Assembly: GCF_988243305.1 (NCBI RefSeq)
Contig: NZ_OZ547136.1
Reading direction: 5' to 3' (one strand)
Length of the DNA stretch: 64,000 nt
The notes under the pieces were generated by a model. It saw nothing but the letters and a program-made list of their open reading frames with translations, ran no database searches and had not been told where the DNA came from. Position 1 is the stretch's first letter. Every line of letters starts with the position of its first letter. Below are positions 16,378-20,106 of the stretch, piece by piece. Position numbers and translations under genes: made by a program.

Positions 16378-17961
16378 ATGGAATGGATTGCCGATCCGTC
16401 TATCTGGGCCGGGTTAATCACGCTGATTGTGATCGAACTGGTCCTCGGCATTGATAACCTGGTCTTTATTGCCATCCTCGCCGAAAAACTACCGCCGAAG
16501 CAGCGCGACCGCGCACGGGTTACCGGGCTGCTGCTGGCGATGTTAATGCGCCTGTTACTGCTGGCGTCAATCTCCTGGCTGGTCACCCTGACACAACCGC
16601 TATTCAGCTTTCGCTCGTTTACCTTTAGCGCCCGCGACTTAATCATGCTGTTTGGTGGTTTCTTCCTGCTGTTCAAAGCCACGATGGAGCTGAACGAACG
16701 GCTGGAAGGGAAAGACAGCAATAACCCCACGCAACGCAAAGGTGCGAAGTTCTGGGGGGTGGTGACACAAATTGTGGTACTGGACGCCATCTTCTCACTC
16801 GACTCGGTGATTACCGCCGTCGGGATGGTCGACCATTTACTGGTCATGATGGCCGCCGTCGTTATCGCTATTAGCCTGATGTTGATGGCCAGCAAGCCGT
16901 TAACGCAATTTGTTAACAGTCACCCGACGATCGTTATTCTCTGCTTAAGCTTCCTGTTGATGATTGGCTTTAGCCTGGTGGCAGAAGGTTTCGGCTTCGT
17001 CATTCCGAAAGGCTACCTGTACGCTGCTATTGGTTTCTCGGTGATGATCGAGGCGCTCAATCAGTTGGCTATCTTTAACCGGCGACGTTTTCTTTCCGCT
17101 AACCAGACACTGCGCCAGCGGACTACCGAAGCGGTAATGCGCCTGCTTAGCGGGCAAAAAGAAGATGCGGAACTGGACGCCGAAACCGCGTCCATGCTGG
17201 TGGATCATGGTAACCAGCAGATCTTTAATCCGCAGGAACGGCGGATGATTGAGCGGGTACTTAATCTTAACCAGCGTACTGTCAGCAGCATTATGACGTC
17301 GCGCCACGATATTGAGCATATCGATCTCAACGCGCCGGAAGAAGAAATCCGCCAGTTGCTGGAGCGAAATCAGCATACGCGGTTGGTGGTTACCGACGGT
17401 GATGACGCAGAAGATTTGCTCGGTGTTGTTCACGTTATCGACCTGCTACAACAGTCACTGCGCGGCGAACCGCTCAACCTGCGGGTGTTGATTCGCCAGC
17501 CGCTGGTGTTCCCGGAAACCTTGCCGTTGTTACCTGCTTTGGAGCAGTTCCGTAATGCCCGCACACACTTTGCTTTTGTGGTGGATGAGTTTGGCTCGGT
17601 GGAAGGGATTGTGACATTAAGTGACGTCACGGAAACTATTGCCGGTAACTTGCCGAACGAAGTGGAAGAGATCGACGCCCGCCATGATATTCAGAAAAAC
17701 GCCGACGGTTCCTGGACGGCGAATGGTCATATGCCACTGGAAGATCTGGTGCAATATGTGCCGCTACCGCTGGATGAGAAACGCGAATATCACACCATTG
17801 CCGGGCTGCTGATGGAATATTTGCAGCGTATTCCAAAACCTGGCGAAGAAGTTCAGGTGGGGGATTATTTGCTTAAAACGTTGCAGGTGGAAAGCCATCG
17901 CGTGCAGAAGGTGCAGATTATACCGCTGCGTAAGGATGGCGAGATGGAGTACGAGGTGTGA
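16378..17961 (+). CDS. yegH: Inner-membrane protein with TerC-like integral domain, CBS pair and CorC/HlyC C-terminal domain
   Basis: Track ORF is 549 aa; trimmed to [18 protein letters not shown]... (527 aa). Confidence 0.9.
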
Positions 17962-18064
17962 TGGTATCGCCATTTTACCCGATGCTGCGTAACGCCTTAT
18001 AACTTCAGCAATGAAGCGATGTCTGTGGTACATGGACATCACAGCGGGGGTGTGGGTCCGGGTT

Positions 18065-18095
18065 GCCAGGGTGGTGGAGATTGAGCCACCCTGGC
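18065..18095. other. Perfect 10-bp inverted repeat (hairpin) in the yegH-asmA intergenic region
   Basis: gccagggtgg / 11-nt loop / ccaccctggc; no flanking T-run. Confidence 0.4.
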
Positions 18096-18194
18096 ACGTT
18101 CACCGGCTTGAGCGTTCCATAGTAGCGAGGAACATCAAGTGAACGGAACAGCCTTCGATCTTACATATTCAGAATATAATGGTGCCGCCACGAA

Positions 18195-18236
18195 CGCCTG
18201 ATGCGACGCTTTACGCGTCTTATCAGGCCTACAGGA
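18195..18236. repeat. REP palindromic element
   Basis: gcctgatgcgacgctttacgcgtcttatcaggcctacagg. Confidence 0.75.
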
Positions 18237-18252
18237 CAGGTCACCTGGTAAA

Positions 18253-20106
18253 CTACATCTTCTCCAGCAACTTCTTCACATCTTTGCCATTGCGGGAATC
18301 TTTATTCCGCTCGGCCCAGTCATTCAGGCGACGTTTCGCTTCGTCCTGTAGATGTTTGCGCAGCAGCTGGTCCACTTGCAGGCTGTAATTGAGTTGCTGC
18401 CAGTTGCCATAAACCCGCAGCGGTACTGGCGTTTCTTTGAGGAAATCAATCAGTTTGCTTTCTCCGTTCCATCCACCCACGACCCGAATATCAAACTGGG
18501 TGTCGCAGGTTTGCTCCGCCAGATTCAACGTACCAGCCCCGGAAAGCGCCAGCACAGGCGATTGACCTTGCATGTCGTTTAACGTCACGACGCCATCCTT
18601 CAACGTCAAATAGGTGGTAAAGCGGTCAAGACGCGTCACGTTATCGAAGTTTTCAGCGGCCTTCACATCACCACCATTACGTTCTACCGCTTGCTGAATC
18701 ATCTGCTGGAAGTTCATCCCTTCCATGCGTGTGTCGGTCATTTCGACATGTGCCTGTCCTTGCCAGTTGTGGCGGAATGCGTCGGCATCTATGTCAGCAC
18801 CGGAGAAATCACCAGCCAGTGACATCTTTCCGGTCAACGAAATCGGATAGTTAAACGCCTTCAGAATGGTGCCTATCTCAACGTTTTCCAGCCGTGGCTG
18901 GAAGTTTATCCGCGGATTTATTGATGTCGCGTCCAGCGTGCCCGGCAGTGAAACCTGTCCACCGTTAAGCTTGCCCTGCAGTTGAGTAATTTCCAGCAAA
19001 CCCGACTTGTTGGTCATTTGCGTGGCAACATCTGTAAAATTCATTCCGCGCCAGCGCACGTTACTGGCCTGCAACAAAATATCAGCCGTAAAGCCTTGCA
19101 GTCCCTGATAGGCCGGTTCATCAATACGCGAAGAAATGACCGGGCGCGGCAACGTTGATTGGCTCTGCCCCTGCTGCGCGGCACCGTTTTCACCGTTCGC
19201 TGTTTCATTAAGCGGGATGAGGTTGTCAAGATTCAGTTGCGGGAATTGCAGTCTCAGCTGCCATTCCGGTTTCTCTGTCAACGTGACCTGTGCTTGCCCG
19301 CTCAGCGTACTGTCATTGGCGGTCAAACTAATTTGGTTAAATGAAAGGCGTTTATGTGACTCCTGCCACTGGGCCTGGAAACTCCCCTGCCCCTGAATAC
19401 CTTGTTTTGGTAAATCTGCACCCTGCAACTGCCAGTTAATTTGTTCAATAGCCGCCGTTAAATCATGCGGATAATCAGAAGCATCTACCGTACCGTTAAG
19501 GGATATCGTGAGATCGCGCTGATCGCGATTAACCCGCCCGGAGAACTCAAATGAGCCACGATGTTGGGGATCTTGTTCCATTTGCAGACGGATATTGCGG
19601 ATTGTCACCTGCTCGTCATCTTCATGCTGGAACACCAGCACGCTGTCCGCCACCTTAAGACTGGATATATCAAACGACCATCCGCGATCGTCTGACAGAT
19701 CCGGCAAGGTATTGTCGCGCGGTGCAACCGGAGCGTCTTCACTGCGCACCGCTTCCGTCTGCGGCGTCAGTTGGATCACTGCCCCTTTTAGCATCACCTG
19801 CTTAACGCTCAGTTGATGACTCAGTAGTGGTAAAAGCGCCACGTCCAGACGCATGTTGTCGGCGCGAACCAGTGGCTGGCTCGCGCCCTGGGCGGTGAGA
19901 GACATTCGCCCGGAGAGGATACTAAGCTGCGGCCAGACGTGCCAACGCAGTGGCCCGTCGAGCTGCAATTGATAACCGCTACGTGCAGCAACTTGCTTGA
20001 CCATATAGTCGCGGAAATCATTCGGATTCACCAGCAACACTAACGCAGATAACCCGGCCACCAGCACGACCAGGAGTATCATCAGCGTCGTCAGAAATCG
20101 TCTCAT
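18253..20106 (-). CDS. asmA: AsmA outer-membrane assembly / lipid transport protein
   Basis: 617-aa ORF with N-terminal membrane anchor MRRFLTTLMILLVVLVAGLSALVLLV. Confidence 0.92.
   Translation of the reverse strand: MRRFLTTLMILLVVLVAGLSALVLLVNPNDFRDYMVKQVAARSGYQLQLDGPLRWHVWPQLSILSGRMSLTAQGASQPLVRADNMRLDVALLPLLSHQLSVKQVMLKGAVIQLTPQTEAVRSEDAPVAPRDNTLPDLSDDRGWSFDISSLKVADSVLVFQHEDDEQVTIRNIRLQMEQDPQHRGSFEFSGRVNRDQRDLTISLNGTVDASDYPHDLTAAIEQINWQLQGADLPKQGIQGQGSFQAQWQESHKRLSFNQISLTANDSTLSGQAQVTLTEKPEWQLRLQFPQLNLDNLIPLNETANGENGAAQQGQSQSTLPRPVISSRIDEPAYQGLQGFTADILLQASNVRWRGMNFTDVATQMTNKSGLLEITQLQGKLNGGQVSLPGTLDATSINPRINFQPRLENVEIGTILKAFNYPISLTGKMSLAGDFSGADIDADAFRHNWQGQAHVEMTDTRMEGMNFQQMIQQAVERNGGDVKAAENFDNVTRLDRFTTYLTLKDGVVTLNDMQGQSPVLALSGAGTLNLAEQTCDTQFDIRVVGGWNGESKLIDFLKETPVPLRVYGNWQQLNYSLQVDQLLRKHLQDEAKRRLNDWAERNKDSRNGKDVKKLLEKM

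Follow-up and report, generated by a model that had tools for sequence, protein, structure and literature searches.

In the 64-kb window analysed here (a stretch of 64,000 nucleotides of contig NZ_OZ547136.1, assembly GCF_988243305.1), two convergent genes enclose an intergenic spacer that contains a strong hairpin. The flanking genes are yegH and asmA in annotated E. coli records that are 99.5–100% identical to the window. The hairpin starts 104 nt 3' of the yegH stop, and its arms, GCCAGGGTGG (18065–18074) and CCACCCTGGC (18086–18095), enclose an 11-nt loop at 18075–18085. A sequence-only reading of this DNA had reported a perfect 10-bp stem with an 11-nt loop about 100 nt after the yegH stop, which the sequence bears out; with the T18064–A18096 pair included, the repeat finder gives 11 perfect pairs (18064–18074 with 18086–18096). 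The segment 18060–18100 folds at −24.4 kcal/mol (RNAfold). Four perfect hairpins with a stem of 11 bp or more and a loop of 3–20 nt are present in the window, against 0.41 expected from first-order Markov simulations, and the exact 31-mer of the hairpin is found once in the window and never in shuffles.

The lack of a U-tract, pointed out in the same reading, holds for both strands, on neither of which a T-run follows the stem. A consensus scan of 17800–18400 returned no terminator-like site, and an intrinsic (Rho-independent) terminator was rejected on these two grounds. The sole promoter-like match of the consensus scan in that interval lies inside the yegH coding sequence, and none was found near the hairpin. 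The Rfam search of the spacer gave only a sub-threshold match to the REP-derived naRNA4 family and nothing at the hairpin. Since this match covers 18157–18229 only, the hairpin is not itself a REP or part of a BIME, and the earlier statement that the two are separate is correct. REP units are dispersed, GC-rich intergenic hairpins without a U-tract, which can stabilise upstream mRNA and serve as targets of particular IS3-family elements. The TRIP1-like unit described below differs from REP units and BIMEs in sequence, is much larger and is composite; the REP of the spacer lies outside it.

Table 1. Features of the yegH–asmA spacer in the window.
Feature	Position	Strand	Details and basis
yegH-like ORF	ends at 17961
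Locus-specific spacer after the yegH stop	17962–18040	+	two small hairpins: CTTCAGCAATGAAG; GATGTCTGTGG..CATGGACATC
ORF of 43 codons	18011–18142	+	ATG-initiated
5' lead-in of TRIP1-like element, ACAGCGGGGGTGTGGGTCCGG	18041–18061	+	alignment with long alleles L002 and L004
3' module (P5, P6 and short flanks)	18053–18157	+	covariance model, 101.9 bits, E = 1.9e-26, model positions 1–105 of 105
P5 hairpin	18064–18096	+	11-bp stem, 11-nt loop TGGAGATTGAG; sequence and fold energy
Stem-loop P6	18097–18145	+	CGTTCAC (18097–18103) with GTGAACG (18139–18145), variable interior
REP (palindromic unit), GCCTGATGCGACGC..GCGTCTTATCAGGC	~18193–18229	.	naRNA4 (REP-derived) model, 33 bits, below gathering score
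asmA-like ORF	18253–20106	−

The first part of the spacer (17962–18040) is common to the long alleles of the locus and not clearly shared with the paralogues; it faintly resembles the 5' extension seen in Enterobacter copies and, judged by its letters, may represent such an extension in diverged form. The conserved lead-in that follows recurs in paralogues and in other genera. The covariance model of the 3' module has exactly one match in the 64-kb window. A single-sequence fold of the window P6 prefers another inner pairing, GCTTGA/TCAAGT plus GTTCC/GGAAC. The small ORF in Table 1 runs across the hairpin and across a deletion junction; its frame ends after 18 codons in the long allele (...CGG CTG TAA), and the ATG within GGAATAAGATGAGGG is CTG or TCG in paralogues. 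It was rejected as a gene because it crosses the junction and is not kept in the long allele.

The spacer exists in at least five alleles among complete E. coli genomes. The O157:H7-type allele encodes an intact RelE/ParE toxin with a helix-turn-helix antitoxin and has no hairpin, repeat or REP, while the ABU 83972-type allele carries an element of ~390 bp followed by a 5'-truncated toxin gene and the antitoxin. The long allele consists of the element and then the REP; the window allele is the long allele minus 160 bp, and the K-12 allele is the long allele minus another 178 bp, lost between TACCCGAT repeats. The spacer (window 17962–18252 compared with loci L004 and L005) is thus a site at which a toxin–antitoxin pair and the repeat with REP are swapped, and in ABU 83972 the repeat is fused to the 5'-truncated toxin gene, with ...AATGGTGCCGCC joined to GCTCGCGATG.... 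The hairpin has no similarity to the O157-type RelE/ParE toxin gene, and its origin as a remnant of that gene was discarded.

The hairpin as stem-loop P5 of a dispersed repeat

In nearly every E. coli genome the long yegH allele also has matches elsewhere (median three, maximum 10 sites per genome), and at 73–86% identity it matches places in Klebsiella and Citrobacter. Its E. coli paralogues lie at tauA–mmuM, proX–MFS (proX–ygaY), lysO–aqpZ, yohP–dusC and alx–sstT. A pattern scan of one genome per species recovered at least about 65 copies, up to six or more per genome; the genera among the matches listed are Escherichia, Citrobacter, Enterobacter, Klebsiella, Kluyvera, Leclercia, Lelliottia and Pseudocitrobacter, with an E. 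albertii copy also among them. Roughly 1–10 copies of the repeat are present per genome in Enterobacteriaceae. Pattern matches in Lachnospiraceae and other non-enteric bacteria were set aside as chance, with no Rfam family at gathering score. All fetched copies with retrieved annotation are intergenic. No phage match to the long allele was found, and carriage on plasmids was rejected, as those PLSDB matches that were examined proved to be pieces of chromosome deposited under a plasmid label.

The intact unit measures ~270 nt in the aligned copies and is ordered, from 5' to 3', as a lead-in (ACAGCG..GGTCCGG), a core closed by the stem P1, a linker, P5, an ACG and P6. P1 is a long stem (CTGTAAATCGCC / GGCGATTTACCG) that closes a branched core of two adjacent hairpins, the loops of which read CA(T/G)GGA(T/C)G and CA(G/T/A)GGA(T/C)G in 49 of 49 aligned copies. 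The loop of P5 in intact units reads GGCG(A/G), and P6 has the form CGTTCAC...GTGAACG. The hairpin between yegH and asmA is P5 of this unit.

The P1-closed core is the part absent from the window copy, in which the lead-in is joined to P5 and P6. Alignment with the long alleles L002 and L004 places the missing 160 bp, CTGTAAATCGCC...GGGAGCC(C/T)GG, directly 5' of the hairpin, between 18061 and 18062 of the window and between GGGTCCGG and GTTGCCAGGG of the alleles. The deletion is bounded by CCGG direct repeats, and its junction is ambiguous within CCGG. In addition, the conserved C of the P5 loop motif is changed to A (GGCG to GGAG) in the window, as it is in the K-12 yegH copy. Conservation across strains, which the sequence-only reading had raised, is found, the 3' module with REP and asmA end being present at the yegH–asmA locus in 4152 of 5426 (77%) complete E. 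coli genomes; this is the level that any recent intergenic sequence would show.

Three copies of TRIP1 were described in K-12 by Rudd (1999, Res Microbiol 150:653), and a survey of 6725 genomes distinguished five types (Li et al. 2024, Genes 15:236, PMC10888264): TRIP1a at aqpZ–ybjE/lysO (K-12 915016–915281, 266 bp), TRIP1b at putP–ycdN (partial, with a 125-bp internal deletion), TRIP1c at yohI/dusC–yohG (273 bp), TRIP1d at alx–sstT (264 bp) and TRIP1e at copA–ybaP (265 bp). According to that survey, TRIP1 repeats are GC-rich, 146–273 bp long and predicted to form a stable 'double-Y' RNA fold; their function is unknown, and chromosomal inversions have occurred between copies (PMC10888264). The paralogues at aqpZ–lysO, dusC–mdtQ (yohP–dusC), alx–sstT and putP–efeU are these published TRIP1 repeats, and K-12 TRIP1a (locus L136, 3017–3282) contains a match to the 3'-module model. 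TRIP1a, TRIP1c and TRIP1d score 42–44 bits with this model, compared with 101.9 bits for the window copy. The long yegH allele is 85.7% identical to the lysO–aqpZ copy over 185 nt (E = 1e-46), and in the multiple alignment it is ~70% identical overall to K-12 TRIP1a and collinear with it across the unit.

By significant sequence similarity the yegH–asmA element belongs with TRIP1. Its BLAST length coverage of 68% (185 of ~270 nt) lies below the >80% applied by Li et al. (2024), and the window copy is truncated further. The family as a whole has the TRIP1 traits (intergenic position, GC-richness, branched fold), and the window copy keeps two 3' hairpins only. Both groups have the homologous P5 hairpin with a GGCGATTG loop followed by P6, in the same stem order, both are intergenic, GC-rich and often beside transporter genes, and both include an internal-deletion form, namely TRIP1b and the window copy. 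The letters of the P5 and P6 stems, in contrast, are wholly unlike those of TRIP1a (GCCAGGGTGG versus GCAGGGGGCGGC), and pairing is kept through compensatory changes. Neither yegH nor asmA is mentioned by Li et al. (2024, PMC10888264), and the locus is outside the five published ones; literature searches with sequence strings and for RSA, Box C and IRU repeats gave no match either. From sequence, we class the yegH–asmA copy as a diverged, truncated relative of TRIP1 and not as one of the five catalogued types, and the yegH–asmA, tauA–mmuM and proX copies as a second E. coli subfamily, absent from the TRIP1 survey. The nearest relatives of the yegH subtype among the matches listed are copies of Enterobacter, Leclercia and Lelliottia.

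Loss of the core is not confined to the window. In TRIP1b (K-12 putP–efeU, locus L140, 855–1000) the core is lost and P5 and P6 are kept. The core has been lost three times independently, in the window allele, the K-12 yegH allele and TRIP1b, with P5 and P6 retained each time. Either of two causes would account for this repeated loss: slippage between short direct repeats across the large P1-closed structure, or selection to keep the 3' module.

The surroundings of other copies are varied. Citrobacter, Kluyvera and Pseudocitrobacter contain diverged units in head-to-head (divergent) pairs around an AT-rich spacer of ~90 nt, e.g., in Citrobacter freundii (L011, 3630–4275) and at loci L054, L055, L068, L069, L106, L107, L114, L116, L118, L121, L127 and L128. 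Consensus scans of K-12 TRIP1a and of one such AT-rich spacer from Citrobacter detected neither promoter nor terminator; a TTGCTG-N16/17-TAAAAT promoter candidate spotted by eye in the Citrobacter spacer failed the consensus scan. Units are often flanked by CCCTCTCCC..GGGAGAGGG repeats, which we take to be Box C-like (e.g., L093 5760–5830 and L006 2760–2900, Enterobacter), and the same repeats replace TRIP1d at K-12 alx–sstT (L137). The repeat-bearing spacers are mosaics of several repeat families.

Covariation of the stems and resemblances of the core

The fold of the unit is supported by compensatory changes. RNAalifold predicted 51 pairs for the whole unit in 49 copies, 31 of them with compensatory changes. 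For P5, a MAFFT alignment of 37 copies has six of 11 pairs changed on both sides and 94% of cells paired. The covariance model of the 3' module gave 76 matches in the collected loci, representing 74 distinct copies, among which eight of the 11 P5 pairs are changed on both sides (95.8% of cells paired); the model-based alignment is fitted to the model and favours structure, and the MAFFT count agrees with it in direction. P6 has three of seven pairs changed on both sides and 99% paired, its stem CGTTCAC/GTGAACG corresponding to CGCTCC/GGAGCG in the TRIP1a type. P5 and P6 together are paired in 97% of cells, a value that falls to 33–49% when partner columns are slid, and no shuffle reached the observed covariation score or percentage paired. 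Such covariation of P5 speaks for a folded single strand, most simply RNA.

The stem and the loop of P5 behave differently. There are 43 distinct P5 sequences, with stems such as GCCAGGGTGG/CCACCCTGGC, GTCAGGGAGG/CCTCCCTGAC, TGTAAAGGGCG/CGCCCTTTACA and GCAGGGGGAGGA/TCCTCCCCCTGC, and 69 of 76 copies have GGCG in the loop. With the letters of the loop constrained and those of the stem not, our best guess is that P5 may serve in intact units as a protein-recognition hairpin. Pairing of the loop elsewhere in the unit was considered and rejected: GGCGAUU is complementary to AAUCGCC in the 5' strand of P1, but the loop positions do not vary, and where the loop reads GGCGAC, the change of U to C has no compensating partner. 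On the yegH-sense strand, G–U cells in predicted pairs outnumber A–C cells by 46 to 12 in the RNAalifold pair table, a count that ignores relatedness and in which one lineage supplies 15 of the 46 G–U cells. This excess favours an RNA transcribed in the yegH sense, although a count blind to relatedness settles neither the strand nor the choice between RNA and single-stranded DNA.

The core of the long allele resembles the TwoAYGGAY RNA (RF01731), to which it aligns end to end with 31.5 bits in L004 (E = 0.004 in a 441-nt search) and 30.6 bits in L008. These scores are below the gathering threshold of 43 bits, no other Rfam family reaches its own threshold, and the window itself, with its core deleted, has no TwoAYGGAY match in the Rfam search. 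Both structures have a long P1 around two adjacent hairpins with loops that carry or resemble AYGGAY; many of the enterobacterial loops have G where the motif has Y, loop 2 is usually CAGGGAYG, and in the long allele the counterpart of the window hairpin follows 18 nt beyond the 3' end of the model match. Psychromonas ingrahamii contributed at least five sites to the original alignment of TwoAYGGAY (Weinberg et al. 2010, PMC2864571), an RNA of unknown function. Each of the P. ingrahamii copies is followed by further 3' hairpins, a layout similar to that of the enterobacterial unit, but the enterobacterial sequence profile did not match the Psychromonas copies (nhmmer). The link to TwoAYGGAY is a resemblance in architecture and loop motif, not a demonstrated membership.

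The same core loops recall the targets of CsrA, for which SELEX gave the consensus RUACARGGAUGU with ACA, GGA and GU conserved in the ligands (PMC7652899). In intact units the loops ACAUGGAUGU and UACAGGGAUGU (alignment columns 72–79 and 100–107; L004 1205–1212 and 1233–1240), missing from the window, contain the ACA, GGA and GU elements. They would fit the consensus as a motif resemblance only, and the stems of the units are longer than those of most SELEX ligands. P5 has no conserved GGA, the GGA in the window loop being a private mutation. In the supplementary tables of an integrated-transcriptomics study of E. coli CsrA, ybjE and dusC are marked 'No' in four yes/no columns, the intergenic repeats being outside its assessment, and no CsrA link is drawn in the TRIP1 and TwoAYGGAY literature examined. 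A doubtful idea is that TRIP1-type units and TwoAYGGAY RNAs are dispersed structured RNAs whose twin ACA-N-GGA-UGU loops might bind a CsrA dimer, acting as genome-scattered CsrA decoys or as CsrA-controlled modules of 3' or 5' UTRs. In that case P5, constant in its GGCG loop and covarying freely in its stem, could offer a second recognition site through which the unit is processed, stabilised or spread, and the core-less relics could be cases in which the 3' module survives, and perhaps acts, alone.

Possible roles of the hairpin between yegH and asmA

Transcript data for the locus come from the supplementary files of a K-12 3'-end study. Their sole yegH entry is a minus-strand Rho termination region at 2139476 (NC_000913.3; Rho score 7.7, p = 1e-18), called from published DirectRNA-seq with and without bicyclomycin; it corresponds to about window position 17952, antisense to the last yegH codons. 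These files list no plus-strand 3' end at the hairpin, where the sequence-only reading had proposed 3' end mapping as a check; the roles it put forward (RNA processing, protein binding or RNA stability) would be putative. Transcription from asmA seems to cross the entire spacer, passing antisense to both the hairpin and the REP, and to be stopped by Rho only afterwards.

In view of the lost core, the C-to-A change in the loop and the lack of a recorded plus-strand 3' end, we regard the window copy as most probably a relic, its hairpin being P5 of a TRIP1-family repeat between yegH and asmA from which the core was removed by the 160-bp deletion. This deletion, between the CCGG direct repeats, excised exactly the P1-closed core. 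The remaining hairpin would have no specific function of its own. A stem-loop of −24 kcal/mol might at most act passively, by blocking 3'–5' exonucleases on the yegH 3' UTR or by forming an obstacle between the convergent genes, where no terminator lies. The hairpin pointed out by the sequence-only reading thus exists, with conserved pairing, yet not as an independent element: it is one module of a dispersed repeat, in a copy that has lost its core. Nevertheless, P5 and P6 without the core have been kept in three independent derivatives, so the 3' module alone may be useful and the term 'relic' may be too dismissive.

The hairpin could instead be a stand-alone cis element of the yegH mRNA, either halting 3'–5' exonucleases and so stabilising the message or marking the site where RNase processing sets the mature 3' end. 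Its stable stem lies in the sense orientation close behind the yegH stop, some structure must set the 3' end in a spacer without an intrinsic terminator, and P5 with P6 persists both in the three deletion derivatives and in most complete E. coli genomes. However, P5 recurs in dozens of intergenic settings that have nothing in common with this one, and in differing orientations, among them antisense to both neighbours at lysO–aqpZ and tauA–mmuM, so that its conservation belongs to the repeat and not to yegH. Moreover, strains of the O157 type have the toxin–antitoxin pair in place of the hairpin, and the K-12 files hold no plus-strand yegH end. We therefore consider a dedicated yegH element unlikely.

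A role at the DNA level, in which a cruciform or single-stranded DNA fold would be a recombination site, an IS target or the end of a non-autonomous mobile element, seems improbable to a similar degree. The number and location of copies vary between strains and genera, TRIP1 copies mediate chromosomal inversions (PMC10888264), and head-to-head pairs are found in three genera. Two copies in Enterobacter sp. MGH 24 also carry an IS3-family insertion at the same position of the P5 loop. On the other hand, no terminal inverted repeats or target duplications were seen for the unit, no associated transposase was found, phages gave no match, and the plasmid matches examined are mislabelled chromosomal DNA. 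The alx–sstT alleles differ by replacement of a whole segment and not by a clean insertion; with segment swaps and the Box C-like repeats of K-12 no empty site is definable there, and clean insertion with target duplication was rejected. The excess of G–U over A–C also fits RNA better.

The insertions in Enterobacter sp. MGH 24 (NZ_KI535657.1) are an observation in their own right. The IS, at L093 5935–7335 (minus strand) and in L091, has two overlapping ORFs and ends TGCACTGAACCCCTAAACCTGGACACC..., and it sits in the P5 loop as GGCGAT–IS–GATTGAG with a 3-bp GAT duplication. By analogy with IS1397 and ISKpn1 on REP units, this suggests loop-specific targeting.

Together with P6 and the REP, the hairpin might also belong to a buffer for termination or collision between the convergent genes, operating on the minus strand within the asmA 3' UTR or both ways. 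The K-12 Rho region peaks just past the spacer, inside the end of yegH, and the fold of the reverse strand (−107.7 kcal/mol, z = −3.5) is comparable in strength to that of the forward strand. Yet the Rho signal peaks beyond the hairpin, which means that the hairpin does not stop the minus-strand transcript, the G–U pairs favour the plus strand across the family, and strains with the toxin–antitoxin allele manage without the hairpin; such a buffer is therefore decidedly unlikely. A chance palindrome, or a hairpin that is merely part of the ATG-initiated 43-codon ORF spanning it, is scarcely credible, since compensatory changes across genera rule out chance, far fewer such hairpins are expected per window than are found, and the ORF crosses the deletion junction and shrinks in the long allele.

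The hairpin itself is ordinary: a known repeat family, of which a decayed copy lies here, accounts for it. What its analysis adds concerns that family. TRIP1 is not restricted to E. coli but extends across the Enterobacteriaceae, with strong compensatory covariation in every stem, and this covariation is the first comparative evidence for selection on the TRIP1 fold. A second E. coli subfamily, comprising the copies at yegH–asmA, tauA–mmuM and proX–ygaY and missed by the TRIP1 survey, is newly recognised. Finally, the TwoAYGGAY-like core with its CsrA-consensus-like loops offers one testable idea for two entries hitherto listed as 'function unknown'.
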